From IMG/VR virus record IMGVR_UViG_3300025828_000014: DNA of 64,000 nt; one strand, written 5' to 3'. How positions within the stretch are numbered: position 1 is the first letter of the stretch; each line of letters starts with the position of its first letter. This DNA comes from a virus. A program made the position numbers and the translations under genes. Under the pieces are notes generated by a model that saw only the letters and a list, made by a program, of their open reading frames with translations, did not search any database and was not told the origin of the DNA. This document shows positions 39,018-63,999 of the stretch, piece by piece.

Positions 39018-39452
39018 TTATCCTCTTCTTCCTGTATGAAAGATATCATTTTCAGTAACTACTCTAAAGCGTATTTTATTTTGTTTACAATATGCATTTG
39101 CAGCTGACCATTTTGCTTGATTTAACAAATAATGTGCTCTATTATTTTTGCTTGTAGCTTTTTCTTGAACTGTTTGATTAAACGGTTTGACTTCTATTAA
39201 TTCAACATGCTTTTTACTGTTTGCATCTGTGTATACAATAAAAAAGTCAGGCACATATATAGTTTGTTTTCCAGTAAATGGATTTCGATAAGGTATTTTT
39301 ACTGCTTCACTTGCCCATTTTTCTACACTTGGATGTTCATCGCAAAAACGCATGAATGCAAACTCCCAACTACTACGATAAGTTGGTGTTCTATTTGACA
39401 TATATTTTTCAGGGTTTTTTAGATTATATTTTCCTTGAGCATATTTGGCCAT
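39018..39452 (-). CDS. Head completion nuclease (T4 gp4 / TnsA-N-like)
   Basis: YRSSWE, WASE, YVPDF, IEVKP, KWSAA. Confidence 0.9.
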   Translation of the reverse strand: MAKYAQGKYNLKNPEKYMSNRTPTYRSSWEFAFMRFCDEHPSVEKWASEAVKIPYRNPFTGKQTIYVPDFFIVYTDANSKKHVELIEVKPFNQTVQEKATSKNNRAHYLLNQAKWSAANAYCKQNKIRFRVVTENDIFHTGRRG

Positions 39453-48866: not shown

Positions 48867-49301
48867 ATGAGTCAAATTATTTGTAGTGGTGCACTATTTT
48901 ATACATTAGATACACAAAGATTTTTATTCCTACATAGAACACAAAGTAAGAATAAAAACGTGTGGGGTCTTGTTGGTGGAACCAACGAAGACAAAGAAAC
49001 TGCTTGGGAAGGTTTACGTAGAGAAATCAGAGAAGAAATAGGCAGTATTCCTGAAATCAAAAAAACAATACCATTAGAAACATTTATAAGCAAAGACGAA
49101 AACTTTTTATTTCATACATATCTTTGTGTAATTGAAAAAGAATTTATCCCAGTTTTAAATAATGAACACAACGGCTATGCTTGGGTATCATTTAACAGTT
49201 GGCCAAAGCCTCTGCACAACGGATTAGCAAATACATTACGCAGTAAACAAAACCAACAAAAATTACAAACTGTTTTTGAACTTATTGAATTGTTCGTATA
49301 A
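48867..49301 (+). CDS. NUDIX hydrolase
   Basis: Nudix box GGTNEDKETAWEGLRREIREEIG. Confidence 0.9.
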   Translation: MSQIICSGALFYTLDTQRFLFLHRTQSKNKNVWGLVGGTNEDKETAWEGLRREIREEIGSIPEIKKTIPLETFISKDENFLFHTYLCVIEKEFIPVLNNEHNGYAWVSFNSWPKPLHNGLANTLRSKQNQQKLQTVFELIELFV

Positions 49302-52300
49302 CCAATCAAAGTCATTAATTTTATTTAAATAATCTAAGTTTTTCGCAGCATATTCACCGTATTTTTTGCCTTGATTAGCACCGTTAATCGCCGCATTACC
49401 AAACGGTTTATCTTTACCTCTTGTGCACCAAGCATTCAATCTAAATTCAGTTTCTTCATCTAGTTGTCCGTCAATTGCACGTGAACTTAACTTTACACAT
49501 TCTCTAAAGGCACTGCGCCATGTGCTGAATTCGTCTGTATCAAATTTTGTAATATTAGAAATCTTGTTTACTACTTTGAACAATGGACTTATACTTGTTG
49601 TCATATCAGGTTTGTTAGTATCCATATTCAATGTTAACTCTCTAGGCAATAGTTTTACAGCACCATAACCATAAATTAGTCCATTTATTGGATTTTTAGA
49701 TTTCCAAACGTGAACGGTGCGTTTGCTATCAGGATCGTAATTAGGAATGTAGTAATCAAAGTTAAAATCATCTACAATTTGTGCATCAGCATCTACTACA
49801 TAAAACATCTCAGTTTCAGCAGTTTTTGCAGCCATGATATGTGCTTGATGAATGCCTTCAATGCCATGAACTCTGTGTATTGTTTTGTCTGGAAATTGAT
49901 TTAATAATCTTTCAAAGTTTTCATCTGCACTTTTTTCATCTTTGCTAATAAACACAATATCATAAGGTTTTGGTTGACTAGCTGTAATATTGTATTCTTT
50001 TTTGTTTGCAAAAAACCGCATTTGAATTTCTCGTTCTGTAATATTAGATTTTTTGCTTACTAGTGCTACACCATCCCAAGCATTGCCATTTTTAAACACA
50101 TGATTTGTAGATCTTTCAAAATCTTGGTCATGTGAAAAATACAAGTCAAAATCAAAATTAGGTTCTATATTGACTTCTCTTGGTATAATCCAAAACATTT
50201 CTGTCTTTGACATGTTATATGCTTTTTTGTAATCGTTATATGTGTTAATTGTAAACCTATCATACACTACAGGGCCACTAGCAACAATATCCCATTCTTT
50301 ACGTCTACCTATAGTTCTATACTCAATTTCTTTTTGTGTTAACGGTGCATGTTTTGTAAACAAAAATAATCCGTTGTATTTTTCTTTACCGTTCACGCTA
50401 TGCTTAAAAGCATGGTTAATTGTTCTATCATAACTGTTGTGTATATCAATATACATGCGCATATCAAAATCTTCACGTATTTTAATATTAGGTGTAGTTC
50501 CCCAGAACATATTTGACGGTGATTCATCAAATGCATTGAGATAATCATTATATGTTTCAATATTATATACAGGAAAAGGTTTTGGTGTGCTTGCAACTAC
50601 ATCATGTTTCTTACTGTTAGCATAAAATCTATGCTCAACTTCTTGCTGTGTCACAGGAGCATGTGTTGACATAAGAGCAATGCCATCCCAAAATTTGCCA
50701 TTTTTAAACACATGATTTGTATTCCTATCAAAAACATTATCATGAGTAAAATACATTTCAAAATCAAAATCAATATCAACTTCCACATCACTAGGTATAG
50801 CCCAAAACATTTCAGTTGTTGCACTGTCCATTGCAGACAAGTAGTCAGTGTAGTTGTTTACTACAAATCTTTCGTATTTTACAGGTATACTAGCAACCAC
50901 AGGCCAATTTTTTGCTTTTACTAAATGTCTGTGTTCAATTTCTTTTTCTGTAACAGGTGCGTGTTTGCTGAACAAAAACAAACCGTTTCTATATCCTTTG
51001 TCATTAACTTCATGTAAAAATGTATGGTTAATTTTTCTATCGTATTCATTATCGTGAGAGAAATAATAATCAAAATCAAAAATACTTGTATCAATGTTAT
51101 TTGATAATCCCCAGAACATTTCTGTATCGCTTGCTTTTAAAGCATCTAAGTATTGACCATATGTTTCAATAACAAATTCATCATACATACATTCTTTACT
51201 GGCAACTATATCCCAATGTTTTGCATCAACTATATGTCTATATTCGATTTCTTTTTGTGTTACTGGTTTGTGTTTGCTTAATAAAAATACACCATTATAC
51301 AATTGCATTCCTTTTACTTCATGTATAAATGCATGATTTGTAAATCTATCAAATCTATTGGTATGGTCAAAATGTAAATCAAAATCCCAGTTATCAGTGT
51401 TAATGTTTCTACTTACCGCAAAAAATAATTCAGTAACACTTTTTTCCATTGCTTCTAAATATTCATCGTATGTATCTATAAAGTGTATATCATACTGAGC
51501 ATATCTGCTTGCAACAACTTTCCATTCTTTTACATTTAAAATGTGTCTGTGTTCAATTTCTTTTTCAGTCACAGGAGATTTTTTACTAAACAAAAAATAT
51601 CCATTGTAATTTACACTGTCAAATCCTTGATTGAGAAATGCATGATTTATACTTCTATCATATTTGTTATCGTGTGTAAAACTCAATGTAAAATCAAAAT
51701 CTTCGTCATCTTCTAAATTACTACACACTCCCCAGAACATTTCGGTTTTGCTGTGCGTAAACGCATACAAATAATCGCTGTATGTGTCAATGATAAATTT
51801 ATCATACTTTACAGGAAAACTTCCTACAACACTATGCTGTTTGACATTAACAAGATGCCTATGCTCAACTTCTTTTTGTGTTAAAGGGCTGTGTTTACTA
51901 CATAAAAATAATCCATTATACAAACAACCAGCATGATCATCTACTTTGTGTAAAAATGCATGATTGATATTCCTGTCATATGTATTGCTATGTTCTAACA
52001 CAAAATCAAAATCAAAACCACTTGTATTGATATTTCGACTGCTCATCCAAAACATTTCTGTCCTTGAAGTTTTAAGTGCAGTTACATATTCGTCGTAATC
52101 GTCAATTTGAAAATATTCATAAGGTGCAGGCACACTCATAATTGTGTTGTGCTCTTTCCTGTTTACAGGATGTCTATGTGATATTTCATTTTCAGTTAAT
52201 TTTATACTTTTAGGAACTAACATAAGCCCATTAAAATTTGAAATACCATCGTGGTCGTGCTCAAACACATGAACTTGATTTCTGTCTATGATATCATGAT

Positions 52301-53753
52301 GACTGATATAAAATTGATCTCTTGCGCTTTGATAATCGTTTATTTGTGGACTAGAAAGCCAAAACATATCTGTTGTAGCAGAACTTTTTGCATGTATATA
52401 ATCTTCGTAAGTTTCTACTTCAAAAACATCAAAAGGTTTTGGTATACTATAAACTTCTTCCCATTGTTTCTTCTTAGAATAAAATCTGTGTTCTACTTCT
52501 TTTTTTGATAACTTTGTATTAACATTGTATAATACAACGCCGTCGTAGGTTTTTTTATTTAGAAAAACATGTGTAATATTTCTGTCGTATTGATTGTGAT
52601 GTGAAAAATATAAATCTAATTCTTTCACTACATCTACATCACTTGGTATACCCCAAAACATTTCTGTGGTTGTATTTTCCATAGCACGTTTGTAGTCAGA
52701 CCAAGAATTAACTACAAACGTATCAAACTTTTTTGGCCGGCTTGCTACCACCTCGTGTTCTTTTTTCACTACAATAAATCTGTGTTCAAATTCTTTTTTT
52801 CCTATAGGACAATGTTTACTGAACAGCATAACACCGTCATAACTTTTGTCATTTAAGAACACATGATTTATATGCCTATCGTATTGATTCATATGATCTA
52901 TATAAAAACTTAGATCAAAGTTTTCTTCAAGTTCAACGTCATTAGGTATCCACCAAAACATATCACCCTCGATATTATCTAATACTTTTCTGTATTCTTC
53001 GTATGAATTAAAATTGTATTGTGGGAATTTTTTTGGTTTACTTGCTACAATGCTTACATCTTTTTTCTCAGCGTAAAATCTGTGCTGTAATTCGTTAGTT
53101 GTGGGATTATAATATTTACAGCCTAAAATGATTCCATCTTTACTACGTGCAGAACCATTGCTGAACACATGAATATACTGTTGACTCCAATCATCGGGCA
53201 TATATGAAAATTTAAAAAATTCACTGACTTCAACATCATTTGGCACTAACCAAAACATATCAGTATCTGATTTATTTTGTGCATCGTAATAATCTTGTGC
53301 AATTTCAATGTTTGGAAAACGTTTGATTAATTTTTGATATTCATCGTCGGATTCTTTACCAATAAAAAATATGTTGAAACTTTCTTCGCCACATAAAACG
53401 TCATATTTTGCACAAATATGTTTTTGTTCAATTCTGTGTTCTGTATCAATTTTTGTAGGAACCAGTTTAACTTTGTCCCAACTTATTATTCTTTTACTAC
53501 GTTTATACACATACGGAAAACAATGAATTCCAACTTCTGTAGGTCTAAAATGCCAAGGAAAAGTGCGTAATGTTTCTATATTTTTATCTACTATCCATAC
53601 ATAATCATGATCTTGATAATCTTTTACAACAGAATAATCCATTGTATCTTTTGTGTAATGTATAGGATATGAATGTAAAAAATGATTTTTTAGAACATCT
53701 TGTCCGTTGTAAATTTTTTGTCCATAGCGTTCAAATCTATCAAATGCTCTCAT
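49263..53753 (-). CDS. Giant repeat protein: about 11 degenerate GT-like repeats + C-terminal GT-A domain
   Basis: Recurring TEMFW...DR..NH.F...(N/D)G..L.SK...EIEHR units of about 100 aa; final unit TEMFYVVDAD. Confidence 0.85.
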   Translation of the reverse strand: MRAFDRFERYGQKIYNGQDVLKNHFLHSYPIHYTKDTMDYSVVKDYQDHDYVWIVDKNIETLRTFPWHFRPTEVGIHCFPYVYKRSKRIISWDKVKLVPTKIDTEHRIEQKHICAKYDVLCGEESFNIFFIGKESDDEYQKLIKRFPNIEIAQDYYDAQNKSDTDMFWLVPNDVEVSEFFKFSYMPDDWSQQYIHVFSNGSARSKDGIILGCKYYNPTTNELQHRFYAEKKDVSIVASKPKKFPQYNFNSYEEYRKVLDNIEGDMFWWIPNDVELEENFDLSFYIDHMNQYDRHINHVFLNDKSYDGVMLFSKHCPIGKKEFEHRFIVVKKEHEVVASRPKKFDTFVVNSWSDYKRAMENTTTEMFWGIPSDVDVVKELDLYFSHHNQYDRNITHVFLNKKTYDGVVLYNVNTKLSKKEVEHRFYSKKKQWEEVYSIPKPFDVFEVETYEDYIHAKSSATTDMFWLSSPQINDYQSARDQFYISHHDIIDRNQVHVFEHDHDGISNFNGLMLVPKSIKLTENEISHRHPVNRKEHNTIMSVPAPYEYFQIDDYDEYVTALKTSRTEMFWMSSRNINTSGFDFDFVLEHSNTYDRNINHAFLHKVDDHAGCLYNGLFLCSKHSPLTQKEVEHRHLVNVKQHSVVGSFPVKYDKFIIDTYSDYLYAFTHSKTEMFWGVCSNLEDDEDFDFTLSFTHDNKYDRSINHAFLNQGFDSVNYNGYFLFSKKSPVTEKEIEHRHILNVKEWKVVASRYAQYDIHFIDTYDEYLEAMEKSVTELFFAVSRNINTDNWDFDLHFDHTNRFDRFTNHAFIHEVKGMQLYNGVFLLSKHKPVTQKEIEYRHIVDAKHWDIVASKECMYDEFVIETYGQYLDALKASDTEMFWGLSNNIDTSIFDFDYYFSHDNEYDRKINHTFLHEVNDKGYRNGLFLFSKHAPVTEKEIEHRHLVKAKNWPVVASIPVKYERFVVNNYTDYLSAMDSATTEMFWAIPSDVEVDIDFDFEMYFTHDNVFDRNTNHVFKNGKFWDGIALMSTHAPVTQQEVEHRFYANSKKHDVVASTPKPFPVYNIETYNDYLNAFDESPSNMFWGTTPNIKIREDFDMRMYIDIHNSYDRTINHAFKHSVNGKEKYNGLFLFTKHAPLTQKEIEYRTIGRRKEWDIVASGPVVYDRFTINTYNDYKKAYNMSKTEMFWIIPREVNIEPNFDFDLYFSHDQDFERSTNHVFKNGNAWDGVALVSKKSNITEREIQMRFFANKKEYNITASQPKPYDIVFISKDEKSADENFERLLNQFPDKTIHRVHGIEGIHQAHIMAAKTAETEMFYVVDADAQIVDDFNFDYYIPNYDPDSKRTVHVWKSKNPINGLIYGYGAVKLLPRELTLNMDTNKPDMTTSISPLFKVVNKISNITKFDTDEFSTWRSAFRECVKLSSRAIDGQLDEETEFRLNAWCTRGKDKPFGNAAINGANQGKKYGEYAAKNLDYLNKINDFDWLYEQFNKFKNSL

Positions 53754-54325
53754 AATGTAAAACTCTTTGTTCCATAATGTGCTACATTATTACTTAATGT
53801 AGCGTCTACAAAAATGTCAAATCCTGCATCGTTTACATTTTTGCAAAAGTATATATCTTCACCCATCAACGATTGTGTTGCCTTATAATCAACATATTGA
53901 TAATACGGTTGTTCTAAATATTCATATACTTTAGTGTTTACTAACATACAACCCATTCCTACTGCCCAAACTTTATGTAATCCATTTGTTTCAGTAAGTC
54001 TTTTGTTAAAGTCATTAGAATCTACAAATGCTACGCTTTGATGCGGCGGCATACGTGTGCTATAGGTTGCTGCTACTATTTCTTTATCATGCGCTAATAA
54101 TTTTATTGCTGTGCTTTCAGGAACATGCATGTCGCTGTCAAGCCATAATATATGTGTGGCATTTTTTTCTAATGCTTCTTTTACCAACTGATTGCGTTGT
54201 TGTGGAATGATGGTTCCTAAGTTAATTAAAATTTCACAATCAATTGTTTTAGATATTTTAGCTAGAGAAAGAGCAAATCCTGCATGAACAAGATCTCTTG
54301 CCGGCACACATATAGCAAGTTTCAT
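53750..54325 (-). CDS. Glycosyltransferase family 2-like
   Basis: ICVPARD, QRN, ILWLDSDM, GMGCMLV, GEDIYFC. Confidence 0.85.
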   Translation of the reverse strand: MKLAICVPARDLVHAGFALSLAKISKTIDCEILINLGTIIPQQRNQLVKEALEKNATHILWLDSDMHVPESTAIKLLAHDKEIVAATYSTRMPPHQSVAFVDSNDFNKRLTETNGLHKVWAVGMGCMLVNTKVYEYLEQPYYQYVDYKATQSLMGEDIYFCKNVNDAGFDIFVDATLSNNVAHYGTKSFTL

Positions 54326-54702
54326 TAGGTAATTTTTTCAGAAATTGTATCAGTGTTTAGTGTTGCCTCTGCGGCTACTGTTTGATCGTTGAGTGTTCTT
54401 GCTTTTCCAACTGCTAATGCGACTGCTTCTGTAAAATCTTCTTCTGATAGTGCTGCCATTTCTACCATATTTTCTGGTTGCACTTTTCCTAAAGCAAGTA
54501 GGTCTGCTGCTGCTTTATGTGCAATGACATTGATCCAATGATATCTGTCGTCATCTTCTGGAATATCCATTGCATTAACCATAGCAGTAGCTTCGTCAAA
54601 TGTAATTTGATCAAGTTCTAATGCTGCTAATTTTGCATGTTTACGTGCTTTAGTATATTCTTGCGCCAAGTCAATATTCATGACTTCGTATAAACTTTTC
54701 AT
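54325..54702 (-). CDS. Hypothetical helical protein
   Basis: 125 aa, AGGAG SD, TAATG-coupled to GT2. Confidence 0.8.
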   Translation of the reverse strand: MKSLYEVMNIDLAQEYTKARKHAKLAALELDQITFDEATAMVNAMDIPEDDDRYHWINVIAHKAAADLLALGKVQPENMVEMAALSEEDFTEAVALAVGKARTLNDQTVAAEATLNTDTISEKIT

Positions 54703-54716
54703 AATATAATATGCTC

Positions 54717-54881
54717 CTATGTTCCTAGGCCACCAAATGATGCGCTTAAACTAATCGAACCAGAAGAAATACCAATATAAGCACCTAACGTGCCTCTTAA
54801 TAAAATAGGCGTAGCAGTGCCACCAAAGTAATTTCTTACTTGAGACATTGTAATTGTATTTCCTGTGTTCGGTAACGCCAT
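54717..54881 (-). CDS. 54-aa Gly/Ser/Thr-rich peptide (not in ORF track)
   Basis: MALPNTGNTITMSQVRNYFGGTATPILLRGTLGAYIGISSGSISLSASFGGLGT; AGGA SD; own promoter. Confidence 0.8.
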   Translation of the reverse strand: MALPNTGNTITMSQVRNYFGGTATPILLRGTLGAYIGISSGSISLSASFGGLGT

Positions 54882-54899: not shown

Positions 54900-54928
54900 A
54901 TAATAACATACTATTTAATGTGTGTCAA
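54900..54928 (-). promoter_or_regulatory. Dual promoter: sigma70 with nested late TAAATA
   Basis: TTGACA-cacatTAAATAgtatgt-TATTAT. Confidence 0.72.
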
Positions 54929-54957: not shown

Positions 54958-57900
54958 CTATTTATCGAGTAGTTTTTTCACCATTTCTTTCAATTCTGCA
55001 ATTTCAGCTGCTTGCGCTTCAATCTTAGCATCTTGTTCTTTGATTGCTTCAATAAACAACGGAGCAAGTTTTTCATACTTAACTGTGATATAGTTTTCGC
55101 CTGATTTACTCTTATACTCTTTTGCTTCGCTATCCCATTCTGTATCAAATGGTGCTTTCGCAATTGCTTGTGGTAACACTGCTTCAACTTCTTGTGCAAT
55201 AACACCAGCATCGTTTTTCATTGTTACTGGATGGAAACCTAAATCATTAACTTCTGCTTTCCAATCAAAGTTTACACCATGTAGAGATTTTACTTTATCC
55301 AATGCGTTTTCAATTGGAACAATGTTTTCTTTGAGTCGTCTATCAGATGAATAAGCAGTAACTTCGCCTACAGCACTAAGACTACCACCCATTTGAGCAT
55401 TGTTGTTTGTTAAGTTCCAATAAGCTGGCCACTGACTGTTTACCTGTGTCCAACTGGTTGAGTCATCTGCACCACGTAGAATATAGAACAAGTCGCTATT
55501 GGTATGTAGCATAGCAACATTGTGATCAGTATCACGGAAATATAATGTTGGTGATGTATTTCTGATGTAAATGTTTTGACTTGCTGTAGCAGTGCTTCGT
55601 ATAAAGCCTGTGCTGTCAATACCATCGAGTGTATCAGCATCAGAAGCTGTAACACCAGTAATACCACTACCGTCACCTGTAAATGTAGCGGCTGTTATAT
55701 TGCCAGTAATGTTGATACTACCTGCGCCGCTGATTGTTCCAGAGAAGCTGTCGTTTGCATCACTGCGTAAGAAACTACCGCTATCTACTCCGTCCAATGT
55801 ATCTGCATCTAGTCCACTTGCAGAGCCATCATTACCAGCATGCCAAACTGTATAATTTGTTCCGCCAACATTGTAAGTTAAACCATTTACACCACTGTTG
55901 ATATCAAGATATTCATCAGTTCTATCATTGTAGATACGCATTGCTCCACCATTTACATACTGAATATAACCTCTGCGAGTTCCTGCTTGATAGAAACTAA
56001 TGTATGGACTTTGTGTCGAACCTTGTGTTTGCAAACGTAGTTGCTCACTGTTGTTGCGATTTATTGTAAGCAATCCTGTTGTAGTATCGTTTTCATCACT
56101 GCGTAAGAAACTTGCGCTATCAATGCTGTCTAGGGTAGCAGCATCAACACTAGTTAATCCACTACCATTACCAGTAAATGTGCTTGTGCCAATGTTGATG
56201 TTTCCAAAATTACTGGTAATGCTACCTGCATCAAGTGCACCAGTTCCTGTTAAGTTGCTGTATGTTCCGTCAATACGTGCATTTGGAACAGTTCCTGTGC
56301 CTAAGTTGCTTGCATTTAGGCTTGTAAGTCCGCTACCGTTACCGTTGATTGTGCCATTTACATATACATCTTTAGCAATGCCAACACCACCGTCTACAAT
56401 AAGAGCACCATTTGTTGAAGCTGTTGATTGTGTTGTATTATCAATGTTAACAACTGTTGAACTGTTAAAGTTAATGCTTACACCATTGTCTGCACCAATT
56501 GTATCCAATGCAATGCTACCAACATTAGTAATGTTATTATCGTTAAAGCTGGTTGCACCTAAACTTACACTACCTGTCGCTGTAAGATTATCAGCACCAA
56601 TATTAATTGAACCAAATCCGCTAGTGATACTACCTGCATCAAGTGCGCCTGTGCCTGTAATATCTAATTGGTGCTGAACAACACTGCTTGAACTGATTCT
56701 ACCATCTGGAACAGTTCCGCTTGTCAAATTGCTTGCATTGAGTGCAGTTAAGTTTGTGCCTACACCACTGAAACCATTTGTTCCGCTATATGTAAAACTT
56801 GTGGTAGTAACAGTTGTGTTAACACCAGGAATACTTAAACTATTGTTTGATGCATTACCAATTTGCATAAAGTTGCTTGTTGTGTTTGTAGCAGTTTCAA
56901 TACCTTTACCAATCAAGATATTGTTACTACCCGAAGTAAGTGTTCTACCTGTGCTTGCACCAAGCACTGTGTTATCACTACCTGTAACAATCTCAAGAGC
57001 TTGATATCCTACACCGGTGTTATCATCACCAGCTGTGCTGTTTGCCATTGTGTCTGCACCAACACTGGTGTTGTTATTACCTGCATTGGTTCTTTGTTCT
57101 TGGCTGTCTGAACCAATAGCAGTGTTATTGTTAGCACTTGTAAGTGCGCTCAGTGCCACATAACCTACAGCAGTGTTTTTATCACCGCTTAGAGCACCAT
57201 GTATACTACCACTACCAATACCAGTATTATATTGTGCACCAGTAGTAATACTATCACCATCGCCAAATATTAAGTTGGTTGATTCAGCTAATGCACCTTG
57301 ACCAATTCTAAATCCATTTACAGTAATATCGCTTGTAAATGTTTTACCTGCTTGACTAGTTGGCAATCTAGCATCGTTTACAGTTCCACTTGACAAGTTA
57401 GTTGCATTAAGTGTTGTGAGTCCGCTACCGTTACCGTTAAGTATTCCACCTACGTGTAAGTTTTTAGCAATACCAACACCGCCATCTACTATAAGTGCAC
57501 CATTTGTTGAAGCTGTTGATTGTGTTACATTGTCAATGTTTACAACAGTTGAACTTGCAAAGTTCATACTTGAACCATTGTCTCCGCTGATTGTATCAAG
57601 TGCTATGCTACCTACATTAGTAATATTATTATCACCAAAACTTGTAGCACCTAGTGTAATAGTTCCTGTTGCTGTAAGATTGCTTGTTCCAATATTAATG
57701 TTACCAAAGTTGCTTGTAATACTACCACCGTCAAGTGCGCCAACATTTTGCAAACTACTGTTAATAACATTTGTTCCAAGTGTATTTGCACTTAGAACTT
57801 CTGTGTTATTAATGCGATACACTTTTCCGCTTATGATGTTTACATGCTCACTGAAGTCCCAACTATCGTTAGCATTTGACCATGTAATAGTATGATCTGT

Positions 57901-60900
57901 TGCGCCTTTAAGTGTAATACCGCCGCCATCTGCTGTAGTATCAGTTGGAGTAGCGACAGTTCCTAATTCAATGTTTTTGTCATCAATTTGTAGTGTAGTT
58001 GAATTAAGAGTAGTTGTTGTTCCGTTTACAGTTAAGTCACCTGTTACAACAACATCACCAGCTATGTTAGTGTTACCAGTTGCATATGCAATAGTAAATT
58101 TAGTTAAACTATCTCCAAAACCTAAATCACCAGTTGCACCAATTTGCATACGCTGAGTGCCTGCTGTTAAAAAATCGAGCTCGTCATTATCGGCACCAGC
58201 ACTTGTCTCTGGTCTAATAAGTGTGTCTTGGTCAACGTCTTTAACACCACCTAGTGAACCCCAGTTACTTCCATCGTAACCTTCAAATGTGCTGTCGCTT
58301 GTATTATAGCGAATTTGACCTTGTGCAGCAGTTACATATATACCTGCTTCACCTGGACGCTGCGCACTTGTTCCTACAGGAACTTTTATACCAGTTGTAT
58401 CTGTGAACTTTGTATATCCAGTTACAGTCATAACACCTTCTGTATCAATACGCATACGCTCTGTAATGGTTTGTAGTGCTTCTCCTGTAGTGCTTTCTTC
58501 GCCAGTTTCAACAATAAAGTCGCCGCCGGTTGCATTACCAGTTCCAATGCCTGGACGTAGCGTCAAAGAACCGCCGCCTATATTTGTGCCAATGCCGCCT
58601 TCGCCTTTAATTAGTGCAGGTAATGGACTTGTTCCGAATTCACCACCACCAATTACAACGTTTTGGTTTTTAATAACAATAGTATTTTCTTTTGATATTG
58701 TTCCAATCTGTGTCACAGCTGGATTAGCGTTTACGTTGTTGTTTGTTCTAATTGTAAAAGAAGTAGCATTTTCAGTTGCACCAATAACCGGCCATTGTCC
58801 GTCAAGATTTGCAATCCCACTACTTGCAACAATAACTGTATCTCCTACTCTAACACCAAGTGTTAATGGTGTATTTGTAAAAGTAATAGTTGTTCCTGTT
58901 AAAACACTACCTGTTAAATCTTGGCTTAAAAATACTTCGTCATCTGTGATACCAGTTACAGTTGTGTTAGCTGGAATACTACCACTACCGGCCACAGTCA
59001 TGCCAAATGCAACTTGAGAGGTATCACCAAACAACAATACCTTTTCGCCGTTTGCACTTGCAGAAGAAGTTGATAAATTAATAGCTGATAAATTAACAAC
59101 TACATCTTGAGTGTTAGTTGCTTCATATGTATCAACACTTGTGCTAATATTTCTGCTATCACTGTTTTTACCTATTTTTACATTTTCAGCATCGCCACCA
59201 ATTTCGAGTGTAGAAACGTTTTGATTGTAAACTTGGCCTAGTGATGTGCTGCTAGAACTTAGTTTAGCTGATCCAACATCCAAACCTTCTGCAAGATCAA
59301 GTGCTGTGCCCCATTCGGGGGTAACACCATTTGATTTTAAGAATGTGTTAGCTCTACCAATGTTAAGTGTATTCAAACTTGCAGCTGATTGTGCATACAA
59401 AAGATCACCAATTGCATAAGTTGTGATATTGGTTCCACCTCTATTAACTGGCACAGGACTAGTTAGGTTAGCAGGGTTTAAGAAATAAGCACTATCCAAG
59501 CTGTCCAAGGTTCCTGCATCTACAACACCGTCTTTGATGAAAACTTCACCACTACCGTTTGAGTTAACATCAAATTGGGTTTGTAGGAATCTACTTGTTC
59601 CAAGTGTTGAGAATGTTCCAAGTGGATCGTAGTCAGCGTTAGCTATACCAATGTTTACTGGATCACCGTAGAATTCAGCATTTGAACTTGATCCTGTTAA
59701 GGTGATTGGGTTATCTGTTGTGTTTGCTTTTTTTAGACTTTGAACAACAGTGTCATATCTGCTATCACCAAATAGAACTGTGTCGCTATTAGCAACCCCA
59801 CTTGAACCAAGTCTACTTGGAGAAATAGTTCCAGAAATAATGTTTTCTGCATCAATATTTGTAGCAGCTAGTGTGTTCCAGTTTGACTTAATTCTACTTG
59901 AAGTGTTTACAATTTCAGTTACTCTTGTATTACTTGGCGTAATTCTTGCAGCACCTACACCTTTTGTTCCGATGTCTTTTCTGTTTGTAACAAGTCCGTT
60001 AATACTACTCAACGCATCTGAACGTAGTGTGTGTAATGTAAACGAGTTTGTAGTTACTGATCCTACAAAGAATCTTGATCCGTCTACAATTTCTTTACCG
60101 TCAATGTTTGGAAGAGCGTTAGAAGTAGACCCATCTGTTAATGTGTTAATTCTTATAGCATCAGCTGTTGTAAGTCCGTGGTTTTGAACTATAATACTAT
60201 CGTCTGTTAAGTTAACAGCATGTCTACTAAAATTATGATTGTTGTTTAACGGAGTTGTTAGGAATTCAATTTTATTTAACAAACTGTAATCTTCGTAGAC
60301 TTCGATAGTATCGACATCAATGCGTTTAGCATAATACACACTACCATTTAAAAGACCGCCAATAGCAACATTGCCCAATGTATCGTATGTAAGCGGATCG
60401 CCGTCTAGCAATCCGTGTCCAGCAATAGTAATTCTGTTTGTAGTGTAATCAACACTACCACCACCTGCAGTTGTGCCTGCTAAGAAGTTCAAGCTAATTA
60501 CATTGTCAAGTCCTATATCAAATGAATTGTTTACAGCATCAACGTCTTCGATAAAGTCAATACTTGAACTAGATGCAACAAACAATTCTCCGCCAAGAAT
60601 ATTTACATATATACGTTTTTCTATAGCAGATACATCTATTTCAAAACTACTACCTGTGCCACCTATGTCTGCTGCGTTTGCACTTAATCTATCTCCAACA
60701 ACATACCCTGTGCCACCTCTCCTAAGGTCTACATCGCTTACTGCGCCTGCCGTTACAGTAATATCTGCTTTTGCACCTGATCCAACACCTGTTATACTTG
60801 TTAAAGAAACATTTTCGTAAATTTTATTACCTTGTGTTGGAGTATACCCGCTACCGCCAGTGATATTTGCGTTGTCTACATTAACAGCAACACCGTATCT

Positions 60901-63900
60901 TTCTTCTGTAACTGCACCTTGTGCATTACCGTCAGCACTTGTTACAACACTGAAAACATTGCCTGTTCTACTAATAGTTGAAACATCTATACCAATATTA
61001 GCAATCGTAAAAGAAGTCGATGTAGGAGTAGATAAAACTTCGCCGTTTACGTTGAATGTCTCGTCTTCAACACATTCGACTCTTACTTGGTTACCAACAT
61101 ATAATCCATGAGCAGAACTTGTAACAATAGTTTGAATATTACTTGCTCTAGATACACTACTTAGACTTACAATTGTAAAATTATAATCAAGAGAAGGATC
61201 TAATATCAAATACTGACTGGTGTTGGAACTTTTTAGGAAGTAGTTGTCAATAATAGCAGTTGATGCACCTTTGCTTGTTGGATAAACTCCTGAGTCTACA
61301 CCATCAACAAACAAGTTTAAGTTGTTTGTGATATCCCAAGGATCGCCAACACTGTCGTCTGTTTCGTCCCAAGCAAGTCCTGTTGTTGCAACTAAAATAT
61401 TTCCACTGGTGCTAAATGTTCCTTTTGCGTATCCAGTAGCACCAGTTACACCTGGTTGTGTAATAACTGCACCATCTGATGCTGTGATATTGCCACTAAG
61501 AGTCAATTGGACTTGTTCAAAGTTTTCTGTTCCGATATCACCAGCAGACAAATTAACTGCTGGAATTTCGTCGACTTGTGTTAGTCTTGAATTATATCCT
61601 TCTGTGTTTGTGTTGGTAAACTGACGTGTTGCAGGAATAAGTTCGCCGTTGAGCTGACCATTTGTGTTCAACTGAACAATAGCACCTGGAACAGCAGCAG
61701 TTGACACAGTTTTGTCAACAAAGCCACCTAACCTGTTTGAAATAAAACTTCTTACTGCTAATTGTGTTGAAAGTCTAGCATTACTCGGGCCGCCAATTTC
61801 GTCATCACCCAAGTTCACATCTGTTGAAATTTCTTCAATAGCAACATTAGACAGACTTAGTTTTAGAGCATCTAGTTCGTCCACCTGAACTTTGTTTCTA
61901 AATGTAATGTTACCAGTTCTGTTAAACGCTGTAATAAAGTCACCAACTTTAAAGTCACCAAGTTCGTTTGTTCCTGATGAATAAACTCGTCCTGGCAATT
62001 CTTCGTATTGTTCGTATTCTGCTCTTGTGTTACCACCGTTTTGTGGAAGTGCGTTATAGTCTGTTCCTGAACCAGCATATTCCCAAGTGTGTGCAGATGA
62101 GTTAACAATACTCGGTCTGTGGAACCATATTTGTTTTTCTGGTAGATTGGCAGTATTTGTAACACTGCTACTACCGTCTGTAGCTGTAATAGAGAATGTT
62201 GCTGTGCCTAATCCAGTTTTTGCAGATACTTCATTGATTGCAATAGTTGTATTTGGACTAGGAGAATGGTCTTGTGTAATTGTGCTGGTTGCATCAAATT
62301 GAATTCTCAATACGCTTGATCCTACAGCTACTTCTTCAATACTTACAATAAGTCTACGTTCTTCTGGTTCCCAACTATGCACAAATGCACTGTTGTTGTT
62401 TGCACCTGTTGTTCCTTGAATTGCTCTACCAGGAACAAAATAATAGCTTTCAGATCCTGATTCGAGAATCAATGTTTGATATGTTTGGTGTGAACTTAAA
62501 ATTTCTTCAACATAGAATTCTATAATGTCTGTTCTAAAAATATGTGTGCCACTATTTGTAGCATTTGTAAATAGATCTACTGGAAATTCTAAGCTGTCAT
62601 CAAATGTTAAACTGAATGTATTTTCATCTAACACATTAGCATAGTATGTTTGTTCGTCGTTTAAACCACCAATAGACGGATTTCCATTGTTATCGTAAAT
62701 TAATTTTTCGCCGTTTGTAAATCCATGTCCGGTAATAGTAAACACACCTGTGCCTAAATTAATATCTGTGGCCGCATTAAAGTTTGTTGTAGTAGGAGTT
62801 GGAATAAAGCTGTTTGTTATATCGCCTTCACTTGTTACTTCTGCAGGTGATGGAATTTCTTCTGGAGCTCTAATTGCTTCACTTACAATATTAAATCTAC
62901 CTTGGACAAAATCTTCAATAGCAGTTGTAATTCCAGTTTTACCTGTAATCACTGCATTTGTATAAGTAGCAGCTTGTTGGATAGCTGCAATTGTTTGCAA
63001 TTCTTCGCCTGCAAATACACTTCTAGTTGAGTCTGCTAGGTTGGCAGTAAAGTAGCTTAAACCTGCACTACGAGAATATCTATTACCTGTATCCCAAGTG
63101 TCTTTTGCTACTGCATCAATAATTAATTTTGTATCACGTAAACATTTGCTTTGATCGTATGTAAAGTTATACCATTTTGCTGCATCAATACTTTCGTTAA
63201 TATAACGTGTGACTCTTTGCGCAATGTTTGCTTGTCCAACTGCGTCTAATCTGATAAAGTCATCTTGTAATGTTTGTGATACACCTAATGCATTTAAATC
63301 AGGCTCAATTAGAGTTATATCAACTGTGCCATCTTGATCTAAATAGCCAACAATTTCTCCAATTCTTGCTTCAACAAAAGACTCTTCAGTTACAGTTGCT
63401 GGTGTTCCGCTAGTGTCTTGTGTTAAAACGTTTCCTGTTGAAACTGCTACTGCTGTTTCTGTAACAATTTCACCAACAACAATTTTTAACCTATTGTATG
63501 CTGCAATAGTTTCATCTTTTTCACCTGACCCAAATTGTGCATTTGTTCCAACAAAATATTGTATAGCTGCATCTATAGTTTGTAAGTTACCATTAGTAGA
63601 TAAGTCATACACAAGTGCATCAATAATCAAACCAACATCATTTTCACATTTTGCTGCGTTGTATGTAAACGTAGTTGAGAATGGAGCAGTTCCTGCTGAA
63701 ACTTGACTTGCAATCCATGCAGTAATTTCTTTTTTAATAAATTCTTTGTTTGCAATAAGTTGGTTTCTTGCATTTAATGCATTTGTATTAATTGCAGTTG
63801 GTAATACTCTAGCGTCTACTAAATCATCTCCAGCAACACTTGCACTACTTCCAGCATCTAATACTTCTACTATTTCGTCCCAAAGTGCATCAGATCTTGA

Positions 63901-63999
63901 TTCAAAAGTTGCATCTTGTATAATTTGTGCTGTAAATGTTTTAGCATTTTGGTAAGCATCAATATGTTGCTCTTTTTGAGTAGCAAAAAGAGTTGGATC
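54958..63999 (-). CDS. Giant tail fibre/structural protein with C-terminal peptidase S74 intramolecular chaperone (5'-truncated, >3000 aa)
   Basis: Frame stays open to the window end; Gly/Thr/Ser-rich fibre repeats (DADTLDG.DS..FLRS), KC.RD repeats, SSDRRLKENI...GVIAQEVE...LFIEAIKEQ. Confidence 0.9.
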   Translation of the reverse strand, partial: DPTLFATQKEQHIDAYQNAKTFTAQIIQDATFESRSDALWDEIVEVLDAGSSASVAGDDLVDARVLPTAINTNALNARNQLIANKEFIKKEITAWIASQVSAGTAPFSTTFTYNAAKCENDVGLIIDALVYDLSTNGNLQTIDAAIQYFVGTNAQFGSGEKDETIAAYNRLKIVVGEIVTETAVAVSTGNVLTQDTSGTPATVTEESFVEARIGEIVGYLDQDGTVDITLIEPDLNALGVSQTLQDDFIRLDAVGQANIAQRVTRYINESIDAAKWYNFTYDQSKCLRDTKLIIDAVAKDTWDTGNRYSRSAGLSYFTANLADSTRSVFAGEELQTIAAIQQAATYTNAVITGKTGITTAIEDFVQGRFNIVSEAIRAPEEIPSPAEVTSEGDITNSFIPTPTTTNFNAATDINLGTGVFTITGHGFTNGEKLIYDNNGNPSIGGLNDEQTYYANVLDENTFSLTFDDSLEFPVDLFTNATNSGTHIFRTDIIEFYVEEILSSHQTYQTLILESGSESYYFVPGRAIQGTTGANNNSAFVHSWEPEERRLIVSIEEVAVGSSVLRIQFDATSTITQDHSPSPNTTIAINEVSAKTGLGTATFSITATDGSSSVTNTANLPEKQIWFHRPSIVNSSAHTWEYAGSGTDYNALPQNGGNTRAEYEQYEELPGRVYSSGTNELGDFKVGDFITAFNRTGNITFRNKVQVDELDALKLSLSNVAIEEISTDVNLGDDEIGGPSNARLSTQLAVRSFISNRLGGFVDKTVSTAAVPGAIVQLNTNGQLNGELIPATRQFTNTNTEGYNSRLTQVDEIPAVNLSAGDIGTENFEQVQLTLSGNITASDGAVITQPGVTGATGYAKGTFSTSGNILVATTGLAWDETDDSVGDPWDITNNLNLFVDGVDSGVYPTSKGASTAIIDNYFLKSSNTSQYLILDPSLDYNFTIVSLSSVSRASNIQTIVTSSAHGLYVGNQVRVECVEDETFNVNGEVLSTPTSTSFTIANIGIDVSTISRTGNVFSVVTSADGNAQGAVTEERYGVAVNVDNANITGGSGYTPTQGNKIYENVSLTSITGVGSGAKADITVTAGAVSDVDLRRGGTGYVVGDRLSANAADIGGTGSSFEIDVSAIEKRIYVNILGGELFVASSSSIDFIEDVDAVNNSFDIGLDNVISLNFLAGTTAGGGSVDYTTNRITIAGHGLLDGDPLTYDTLGNVAIGGLLNGSVYYAKRIDVDTIEVYEDYSLLNKIEFLTTPLNNNHNFSRHAVNLTDDSIIVQNHGLTTADAIRINTLTDGSTSNALPNIDGKEIVDGSRFFVGSVTTNSFTLHTLRSDALSSINGLVTNRKDIGTKGVGAARITPSNTRVTEIVNTSSRIKSNWNTLAATNIDAENIISGTISPSRLGSSGVANSDTVLFGDSRYDTVVQSLKKANTTDNPITLTGSSSNAEFYGDPVNIGIANADYDPLGTFSTLGTSRFLQTQFDVNSNGSGEVFIKDGVVDAGTLDSLDSAYFLNPANLTSPVPVNRGGTNITTYAIGDLLYAQSAASLNTLNIGRANTFLKSNGVTPEWGTALDLAEGLDVGSAKLSSSSTSLGQVYNQNVSTLEIGGDAENVKIGKNSDSRNISTSVDTYEATNTQDVVVNLSAINLSTSSASANGEKVLLFGDTSQVAFGMTVAGSGSIPANTTVTGITDDEVFLSQDLTGSVLTGTTITFTNTPLTLGVRVGDTVIVASSGIANLDGQWPVIGATENATSFTIRTNNNVNANPAVTQIGTISKENTIVIKNQNVVIGGGEFGTSPLPALIKGEGGIGTNIGGGSLTLRPGIGTGNATGGDFIVETGEESTTGEALQTITERMRIDTEGVMTVTGYTKFTDTTGIKVPVGTSAQRPGEAGIYVTAAQGQIRYNTSDSTFEGYDGSNWGSLGGVKDVDQDTLIRPETSAGADNDELDFLTAGTQRMQIGATGDLGFGDSLTKFTIAYATGNTNIAGDVVVTGDLTVNGTTTTLNSTTLQIDDKNIELGTVATPTDTTADGGGITLKGATDHTITWSNANDSWDFSEHVNIISGKVYRINNTEVLSANTLGTNVINSSLQNVGALDGGSITSNFGNINIGTSNLTATGTITLGATSFGDNNITNVGSIALDTISGDNGSSMNFASSTVVNIDNVTQSTASTNGALIVDGGVGIAKNLHVGGILNGNGSGLTTLNATNLSSGTVNDARLPTSQAGKTFTSDITVNGFRIGQGALAESTNLIFGDGDSITTGAQYNTGIGSGSIHGALSGDKNTAVGYVALSALTSANNNTAIGSDSQEQRTNAGNNNTSVGADTMANSTAGDDNTGVGYQALEIVTGSDNTVLGASTGRTLTSGSNNILIGKGIETATNTTSNFMQIGNASNNSLSIPGVNTTVTTTSFTYSGTNGFSGVGTNLTALNASNLTSGTVPDGRISSSSVVQHQLDITGTGALDAGSITSGFGSINIGADNLTATGSVSLGATSFNDNNITNVGSIALDTIGADNGVSINFNSSTVVNIDNTTQSTASTNGALIVDGGVGIAKDVYVNGTINGNGSGLTSLNASNLGTGTVPNARIDGTYSNLTGTGALDAGSITSNFGNINIGTSTFTGNGSGLTSVDAATLDSIDSASFLRSDENDTTTGLLTINRNNSEQLRLQTQGSTQSPYISFYQAGTRRGYIQYVNGGAMRIYNDRTDEYLDINSGVNGLTYNVGGTNYTVWHAGNDGSASGLDADTLDGVDSGSFLRSDANDSFSGTISGAGSINITGNITAATFTGDGSGITGVTASDADTLDGIDSTGFIRSTATASQNIYIRNTSPTLYFRDTDHNVAMLHTNSDLFYILRGADDSTSWTQVNSQWPAYWNLTNNNAQMGGSLSAVGEVTAYSSDRRLKENIVPIENALDKVKSLHGVNFDWKAEVNDLGFHPVTMKNDAGVIAQEVEAVLPQAIAKAPFDTEWDSEAKEYKSKSGENYITVKYEKLAPLFIEAIKEQDAKIEAQAAEIAELKEMVKKLLDK

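Follow-up and report, generated by a model that had tools for sequence, protein, structure and literature searches.

What does a phage gain from a protein in which one enzyme-like domain is preceded by a long row of shortened copies of its own fold? This question is raised by a viral sequence of 64,000 nucleotides (the window), IMG/VR record IMGVR_UViG_3300025828_000014. Its minus strand carries an uninterrupted open reading frame (ORF) at 49263-53753, coding for a protein of 1496 amino acids (aa), P0001, that had been singled out from the sequence alone in what is here called the original prediction. The reading that we favour, with a probability of roughly 55%, is that P0001 is a phage glycosyltransferase (GT) in which one working head is carried by a rigid, non-catalytic stalk of variable length, and which acts late in infection, possibly on glycans of the virion.

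Modular organization of P0001

P0001 consists of a diverged N-terminal module, followed by 11 tandem units of approximately 100 aa and by a GT-A head with a helical tail. The N-terminal module (aa 1-139; 53337-53753, this and all coordinates below being on the minus strand unless stated) is a diverged copy of the unit, recognizable by DYVWIVD...H.FPY...KVKLVP. It is followed by units 1-3 (aa 140-436; 52446-53336), units 4-8 (aa 437-955; 50889-52445) and units 9-11 (aa 956-1259; 49977-50888), and then by the terminal GT-A core (aa 1260-1405; 49539-49976) and the C-terminal helical part of the head (aa 1406-1496; 49266-49538). The motif (T/G/S)(E/D/N)(M/L)F(W/F) marks each unit and was found by motif search at aa 164, 263, 363, 461, 565, 670, 774, 877, 980, 1080, and 1184, that is, with a spacing of 98-105 aa; in unit 7 it takes the variant form TELFF. 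The TEMFYVVDAD of the head lies at aa 1314, which is 130 aa beyond the last unit motif. When the units were delimited by cutting 24 residues ahead of each motif, all 11 could be aligned over their full length, with pairwise identities of 23-57%. Motif search and alignment agree in this with the original prediction, which had described about 11 motif-bearing units, one of them reading TELFF, ahead of an intact terminal domain.

A tandem-repeat search of the array gene at the DNA level revealed no long-period repeat, which indicates that the duplications that gave rise to the array are old. The identical protein is recorded in 52 assembly blocks, and the four places shown correspond to four different samples. 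Given that the same protein recurs across different samples, the array is not an artefact of assembly.

It is clear from profile comparisons that the units are related to the domain that they precede. A hidden Markov model built from the 11 units of P0001 alone matches the terminal domain of the same protein (aa 1302-1372) with an independent E-value of 8e-8, and it also matches 1183 units in 240 homologues. The terminal domain used as a single query matches array units of other phages with E-values of 1e-8 to 1e-4. Alignment of the head with the profile of the 11 units by hhalign gave a probability of 97.3% (E 2.6e-11, 62 columns), and with a profile of 395 units from relatives it gave 98.5% (E 3.3e-15, 89 columns), the whole unit being spanned. 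In the latter alignment, an insertion of 30 residues, made of strand 2 and helix 2, is placed in the head and is absent from the units. The N-terminal 139 aa align in register with the unit profile (91.6%, E 8e-7), and a profile of this module, searched against 1.84 billion protein representatives, found 69 proteins and covered 5-12 stretches, corresponding to units, in each match of array length, as counted by profile match alone. Because both the head and the N-terminal module match the unit profile, P0001 is, as judged by profile homology, a chain of 13 homologous modules. The proposed homology of the repeats to the terminal domain, and the proposed diverged copy at the N-terminus, are both supported by these comparisons.

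The head and its active-site motifs

Alignments of 148 and of 128 homologues show no variation in either aspartate of the DAD motif (D1321, A1322, D1323; 49785-49793), and the motif closes the hydrophobic strand in MFYVVDAD. A DxD motif placed in this way is the signature of GT-A enzymes. The same sets of 128-148 homologues also keep FIS..E after strand 1, GIHxAH (1300-1305), VHVW (1347-1350), NPxN..YGYG.VKL.P (1354-1370), and DMTTSIS (1383-1389) in the core, together with FRECxKL (1416-1422), R..L..W, G...G, and further positions in the helical part. Only three strands precede the DxD. The head is the module under the strongest constraint, and it bears all the marks of a GT-A active site.

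A structural model of unit 11 and the head (aa 1160-1496) was obtained with a mean predicted local distance difference test (pLDDT) score of 94.2 and a predicted template modelling (pTM) score of 0.88. The top matches of this model in a Foldseek search of the PDB are all GT-A glycosyltransferases, with E-values of 3e-6 to 1e-4 and a probability of 1.0; they include WrtF, RmlT, PcManGT, ppGalNAcT, ArnC, TarS, and SunS. In the comparison with VIA, model residues 101-246 superpose on B4GALNT1 with Z 11.8 and a root mean square deviation (rmsd) of 2.8 over 140 residues; STIV A197 and PBCV-1 A64R are matched with Z ~10, and other GT2-type enzymes are matched as well. In BFVD, two distant uncharacterised relatives come first and are followed mostly by annotated GT-A enzymes, among them the Che8 glycosyltransferase. 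The modelled structure thus places the head in the GT-A fold superfamily, with its Rossmann-like alpha/beta/alpha core and central mixed sheet, and together with the invariant DxD it agrees with the GT-A assignment made for the terminal domain in the original prediction.

Scans of the whole of P0001 against Pfam, PHROGs, and NCBIfam assigned no family, and feature searches of a protein atlas returned only uncharacterised viral clusters, the matches to named GT families scoring 0.86 at most and serving as leads only. Since every test of family membership by sequence failed, the head is, by that measure, a new family and not a member of GT2 or of another curated family. Its motifs and its predicted fold suggest that it is an active glycosyltransferase, to which the sugar-nucleotide genes near some relatives add circumstantial evidence.

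Fold and conservation of the units

A model of three consecutive units (aa 853-1159) folds as one body, with pLDDT 95.5 and pTM 0.85, and all three units are matched over 301 residues by the ESM Atlas model of a relative (TM-score 0.81, rmsd 3.3). The confidence of the first model and the superposition of the second, independent one argue for an array in which the units form a rigid chain. When single units were compared with 48,161 chains, approximately 100 residues could be aligned with an rmsd of ~3 and Z 4.3-6.8, and the 50 best rows were all GT-A or nucleotide-sugar transferase (NDP-sugar-transferase) folds, led by the top matches of the head. The predicted secondary structure of the unit runs strand, helix, MFW strand, short strand, short helix, H.F strand, G..L strand, helix, and long strand; this order mirrors that of the head, minus the second strand-helix pair of the head. 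The unit can be read as a GT-A core reduced to its sheet. The main ground for this assignment is profile homology, to which the structural matches lend support.

What the units lack is extensive. The whole segment of the head that contains GIHxAH is gone, as are the NPxN..YGYG and DMTTSIS loops and the helical part that follows the core. A complete nucleotide-binding half (strands 1-3 with their helices) is also absent, given that the 30 residues of strand 2 and helix 2 are missing. No unit has a DxD: the equivalent place reads (P/W/Y)-x-D in one type of unit (type A), where only the last Asp is retained, and (S/T)-x-N in the other (type B). Because most of the motifs that are invariant in the head are missing from the units, an array of pseudo-enzymes, as had been proposed from the sequence, is the best reading.

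The two types hold throughout the family. Type A combines (P/W/Y)-x-D with N63 and D72, and type B combines (S/T)-x-N with H63, N72, and an insert of four residues in a loop. Columns 32, 34, 63, and 72 are the most strongly coupled of the unit alignment. Across the 1183 units of 240 proteins, F28, W29, G73, and L76 are found in more than 95%, and T25, K79, R91, K97, and S104 in more than 90%. In P0001, units 1-3, 9, and 11 belong to type A, and units 4, 5, 7, 8, and 10 to type B; the B units contain 4-9% His. Unit 6 is B-like, with an Asn replacing the His at column 63. The two subtypes described in the original prediction can therefore be recognized in P0001, with unit 6 fitting the second only in part. 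Its description of the units as lacking DxD is correct in that the motif is incomplete in all of them, and needs to be amended in that type A keeps the last Asp (P-N/S-D), the corresponding residue in type B being Asn.

Distribution of the family and variation in unit number

The head alone (~227 aa), or the head with one type-A unit (~350 aa), accounts for 3057 clusters at 90% identity, and longer forms (>412 aa) for 1897 further clusters at the same threshold. In the common forms of ~350 aa the single unit reads W-D-D. A total of 216 family members of 822-2618 aa were found, with 5-17 full units. In IMG/VR, at least 600 stretches contain the family, and among the 80 loci that were fetched all unit counts from 0 to 7 were seen, in addition to 9, 11, and 14. 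The comparison of repeat number across relatives that had been suggested as a check therefore reveals a range of 0 to 17. Among 50,697 records of cultured phages, tblastn found one match, a hypothetical protein of 233 aa in Ralstonia phage RsoM2USA that consists of the head only and whose gene neighbours are uninformative except for a radical SAM gene.

In the clade of P0001 the units follow the order AAA-B(n)-ABA with variable n, P0001 itself being AAABBxBBABA, where x is unit 6. Units 1-3 and 9-11 have positional orthologues with 55-70% identity in relatives with 9-16 units, and in a relative with 6 units (P0073) clear counterparts are kept only for units 1-3 and 11. It is the middle B units, the block of units 4-8, that are gained or lost among relatives. 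At equal distance, the head is the best kept part of the protein, with 68-79% identity between orthologues, and the lowest values, 43-57%, are those of the middle B units.

Some of the relatives carry arrays that look recently amplified, in contrast to the old and diverged array of P0001. In P0013, nine consecutive units share an MTSPNL segment with a fixed period of 103 aa, and in P0057 ten type-A units follow an exact period of 100 aa.

Several members (P0011, P0013, P0014, P0038, and others) carry the label 'CYTH domain-containing protein' in the annotation of the Joint Genome Institute. No CYTH domain is found among their precomputed Pfam domains, and P0001 has no CYTH match; for this reason, the name looks like an annotation error, one that could spread.

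Genomic context

The window covers the structural region of a large myovirus whose sheath is closest to those of Atu_ph07 and PA5oct, with 45-48% identity. For related IMG/VR fragments, the CheckV estimates point to genome sizes of approximately 350 kilobases. The local order is giant fibre, 54-aa ORF, 125-aa protein, Anp1-like GT, array, convergent NUDIX gene, and gp15. In relatives that have the N-terminal module, the order of fibre, small ORF, 125-aa gene, Anp1-like GT, array, and NUDIX gene is kept, and the module is restricted to this fibre-adjacent class of the family. An Anp1-like GT lies upstream of the array in 22 of the 23 loci with the N-terminal module, the remaining locus being cut at the end of its contig, and in none of the 57 loci without it.

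The Anp1-like GT of the window (53750-54325) is a small GT-A protein of 191 aa with DSD and GED motifs of its own, which was identified by Pfam Anp1 (E 4.5e-7), phrog_1574, phrog_12406, and synteny. Its stop codon overlaps the start of the array gene (ATGA). Besides the invariant DSD and GED, C6, H14, H79, H117, C126, C161, and H183 are conserved. When this protein was considered as a possible member of the array family, hhalign gave a probability of 0.45%, and no relation was detectable. The adjacent gene (54325-54702) codes for a conserved 125-aa protein (phrog_1409, of unknown function) that always occurs together with the Anp1-like GT and the N-terminal module. Twenty positions of this protein, including GK.QP, are invariant in 22 orthologues, and it could be a chaperone or an adaptor. 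A complex prediction for the Anp1-like GT, the 125-aa protein, and the N-terminal module gave a score of 0.00, which speaks neither for nor against binding.

Between the fibre gene and the 125-aa gene lies an ORF of 54 aa (54717-54881), rich in Gly, Ser, and Thr and with two FGG motifs. A small ORF of 53-60 aa is present at this position in all six relatives with gene tables. A strong sigma-70-like site (11/12, with TG) is found at 54900-54928, just upstream of it. The gene order is headed by the giant tail-fibre gene (54958-63999; 3567 aa in the full contig), which ends in a Peptidase_S74 chaperone domain. In six related phages this gene codes for 3529-3961 aa, a length that is independent of that of the array. 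On the other side of the array, the last part of the convergent NUDIX hydrolase gene (48867-49301, plus strand) overlaps that of the array gene; this NUDIX gene is a conserved feature of the fibre-adjacent class. In the block of tail genes, an ORF of 144 aa (39018-39452, minus strand) has a precomputed Pfam match to Tn7_TnsA-like_N, an endonuclease fold.

The members without the N-terminal module are found in a different setting, in islands where radical SAM and SPASM genes abound. Genes for UDP-glucose/GDP-mannose dehydrogenase, DegT aminotransferase, and B12-radical-SAM proteins are present there too, often with a second, unit-less paralogue beside the array gene. In 26 IMG/VR loci, the neighbours include 29 Radical_SAM ORFs, 10 SPASM, 8 Anp1, and 3 UDP-glucose/GDP-mannose dehydrogenase ORFs. 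Genes for DegT aminotransferase and UDPG dehydrogenase directly adjoin arrays in loci of relatives. Loci L006, L010, L011, and many of those from IMG/VR (e.g., L031, L048, and L080) are operons with up to seven radical SAM, SPASM, or B12-radical-SAM genes. These operons also carry AMP-binding, TauD, and amidinotransferase-like genes, and the unit-less paralogue that is often adjacent in them has ~300 aa.

Role of the head and of the array

If P0001 is a glycosyltransferase carried on a stalk, its head (aa 1260-1496), with a reduced GT-A fold, an invariant DxD, and a helical tail, would most likely use a nucleotide sugar as donor and pass its sugar on to an acceptor. The stalk would be made of 12 modules, which we infer to be non-catalytic and which would have been born by repeated duplication of a cut-down copy of the fold of the head. 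It would set a distance or hold an extended substrate, and the old active-site region of its units, kept in two conserved polar forms, could bind a metal or a glycan. Late action is probable, because the array gene is co-oriented with the giant fibre gene and translationally coupled to the Anp1-like GT. Together with the latter, P0001 would most plausibly make or attach glycans on parts of the virion.

Several observations weigh against this reading. For the three-unit model, Foldseek found no match at E <=0.001 (the best had E 0.1), and the structural scores obtained with units only are middling, with Z below 8. The units are not decaying freely: the conserved His that had been noticed in P0001 is present at column 59 in 1178 of 1183 units, and E87 is present in all of them. 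The region of the former DxD takes either of two forms that co-vary sharply, which a plain spacer leaves unexplained, and the B units are rich in His, with His at columns 49, 80, 90, and 92 in 41-84% of them. The last Asp that type A retains may indicate residual binding of a metal or nucleotide. Given that a plain spacer explains neither the polar states nor the His-rich B units, the units may have a metal- or glycan-binding role. As for the head, P0001 has no match to a GT family in Pfam at E <=1 or in PHROGs and NCBIfam at E <=0.01. Neither phmmer nor a profile search yielded a significant match among PDB sequences, the best profile match being MobA with E 0.2, and the fold is also near that of IspD-type nucleotidyltransferases (VIA Z ~10.5). 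Finally, the number of units (5-16) does not correlate with the length of the adjacent fibre (r = 0.02, n=6). These six phages thus give no support to the version of the proposed ruler in which the length of the array would track that of the adjacent fibre.

A tentative alternative, which we consider possible at odds well short of even, gives the polar states of the units a function. The units would be rigid modular binding repeats of a new class, derived from an enzyme fold, in which the metal/diphosphate pocket has been remodelled, either acidic (type A, with D, N, and D) or His-rich (type B, with N, H, and N and as many as four additional His). One repeat of an extended glycan or glycoprotein would be held by each unit, and the array would act as a comb or ruler for the site or the length of the product of the head. 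In members of the fibre-adjacent class, the far end of the array may serve to recruit the Anp1-like GT. An assembly line had also been raised in the original prediction; in the form considered here, the units themselves, or at least those of type A with their last Asp and invariant His, would be active, each adding one residue, and their number would set the length of the glycan. This reading could draw on the invariance of H59 and E87 in 1183 units, on the x-x-D that type A retains and the W-D-D of the single unit of the ~350-aa forms, and on the co-variation of the DxD-equivalent site with two neighbouring strands, as would be expected of a functional pocket. However, the units lack the GIHxAH strand-helix pair, the NPxN..YGYG and DMTTSIS loops, and the helical tail, a unit of 100 aa is less than half of a normal GT-A core, type B has Asn at both acidic positions, and the middle units are the least conserved part of the protein. 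The idea of a His-based assembly line therefore seems very unlikely to hold.

The remaining explanations concern what the protein as a whole, or its head, is for. P0001 might be a structural protein of the virion, such as a side fibre, whisker, or decoration protein, with the rod of units as a shaft and the GT-like head as a lectin-like tip that binds glycans. Its gene does lie within the tail/neck module, co-oriented and right behind the giant fibre in every fibre-adjacent relative, the modular array is predicted to be rigid, and repeats whose number differs from one relative to the next are a common trait of fibres and decoration proteins. We regard this as unlikely, because an invariant DxD and numerous invariant polar motifs are retained in the head, as would be expected of a catalytic site, because other members, with 0-14 units, occur in radical-SAM/sugar-nucleotide islands away from structural genes, and because the models show no beta-helix, collagen, or coiled-coil feature of known fibres. 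The head could also be another enzyme of the fold superfamily, namely a nucleotidyltransferase or a phospho-sugar or polyol-phosphate transferase in a radical-SAM tailoring pathway. IspD, MobA, and other nucleotidyltransferases indeed reach Z 10.4-10.7, against 11.8 for GT-A enzymes, and no GT family model matches, the weak one to MobA (E 0.2) being the sole profile match in the PDB. Enzymes of the IspD/MobA type have a glycine-rich nucleotide-binding loop after strand 1 and no DxD. The head, in contrast, has FIS(K/Y)xE and no GxG(T/S)R-type loop at that place, and an invariant DxD that ends a hydrophobic strand, which is characteristic of GT-A enzymes and not of IspD or MobA; in addition, the top Foldseek matches in the PDB are all glycosyltransferases, as are most of those in BFVD. 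Such an enzyme is accordingly a rather improbable identity for the head. It is also conceivable that P0001 decorates hydroxymethylated bases of DNA, its array being bound along the DNA molecule. GTs by which phages hypermodify DNA are known (Pyle et al. 2024, cited in PMC12619734), and a ThyX gene lies near one array gene. Against this stands the acidity of the protein, with an isoelectric point (pI) of 5.8 for the whole and of 4.8-6.8 for all units except unit 3, so that nearly every unit is acidic, which argues against binding to DNA. A protein or a glycan is a more fitting target in view of the late structural context and of the neighbours that tailor sugars, and no base-hydroxymethylase was seen in the neighbourhoods examined. 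A role in DNA modification thus has very little in its favour.

Comparison with known systems

The favoured reading of P0001, a glycosyltransferase head on a non-catalytic stalk, can be compared with what is known of GT-A proteins. The best structural matches are GT2-like GT-A enzymes such as SpsA (1h7l), WrtF (9omh), RmlT (8bz4), and B4GALNT1 (9h6k), which have in common a Rossmann-like alpha/beta core with the DxD at the end of a hydrophobic strand. The head matches them with Z 10-11.8, an rmsd of ~3 over ~140 residues, and Foldseek E ~1e-6, and the units with Z 5.9-6.8. It differs from them in having its own invariants (GIHxAH, NPxN..YGYG, DMTTSIS, and FRECxKL), a private helical tail, and no detectable membership by sequence, and in that the head of the family is preceded by up to 17 miniature copies of itself. 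Small GT-A domains encoded by viruses are also known: PBCV-1 A64R (2p6w), which acts in capsid glycosylation, STIV A197 (2c0n), and the Che8 glycosyltransferase (Q855A2). These minimal viral enzymes match the head with Z 9.6-10.4 and, in BFVD, with E 2.6e-5, but they are single-domain proteins without tandem pseudo-domains and have no sequence similarity to the array family. Some viral GT-A enzymes glycosylate proteins of the virion, according to the passage of PMC12619734 that cites Freeman et al. (2023).

More than one GT-A domain per protein or complex is found in K4CP (2z86), PmHS2 (8viw), and CHSY3-CHPF (9q8z), which are among the structural matches. These have two full-size domains, whereas P0001 has 12 bare-sheet domains of ~100 aa in two co-varying types, in a family whose copy number goes from 0 to 17. 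In CHPF and Cosmc, a silent GT-A-like module supports an active one. Two GT-A domains in one protein, and silent partners that resemble GT-A enzymes, are thus on record. We know of no other arrays of up to 17 miniaturised pseudo-GT-A modules, and a full-text search of the literature returned no description of such arrays.

The length of the O9a O-antigen is set by the coiled coil of WbdD. This is a possible analogy for P0001, in that a rigid element of heritable length would be attached to a glycan enzyme, and the AAA-B(n)-ABA arrays of its clade vary only in n. The ruler would here be made of globular pseudo-enzyme modules and not of a coiled coil, and the length of the array does not scale with that of the neighbouring fibre.

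With SunS and ThuS (7msn and 7msk), P0001 shares a GT-A domain followed by a helical part, which binds the substrate in SunS/ThuS, and a small peptide gene or ORF nearby, the 54-aa ORF being here a hypothetical substrate at most. The structural match has Z 10.8 for the head and 5.9 for a unit. SPASM radical-SAM genes, which are typical of peptide maturation, are neighbours of the array family in its other context. SunS/ThuS have no repeat array and no sequence relation to the family.

The head is carried by several thousand protein clusters of environmental phages, among which the architecture is common and goes without a Pfam, PHROG, or NCBIfam match. The family provides a natural series of 0 to 17 copies in which an enzyme fold appears to have been shrunk to approximately 100 residues and reused as a rigid building block. 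It bears for this reason on how pseudo-enzymes arise and on what they are kept for. It also touches two little-understood features of large aquatic phages, namely the tailoring of virion or other glycans and the large radical-SAM islands. If it is true that the stalk sets the length or the placement of a glycan, it would be a new kind of molecular ruler, and if it is true that glycans are bound by the stalk, its units would represent a novel repeat of lectin-like type whose valency can be tuned.

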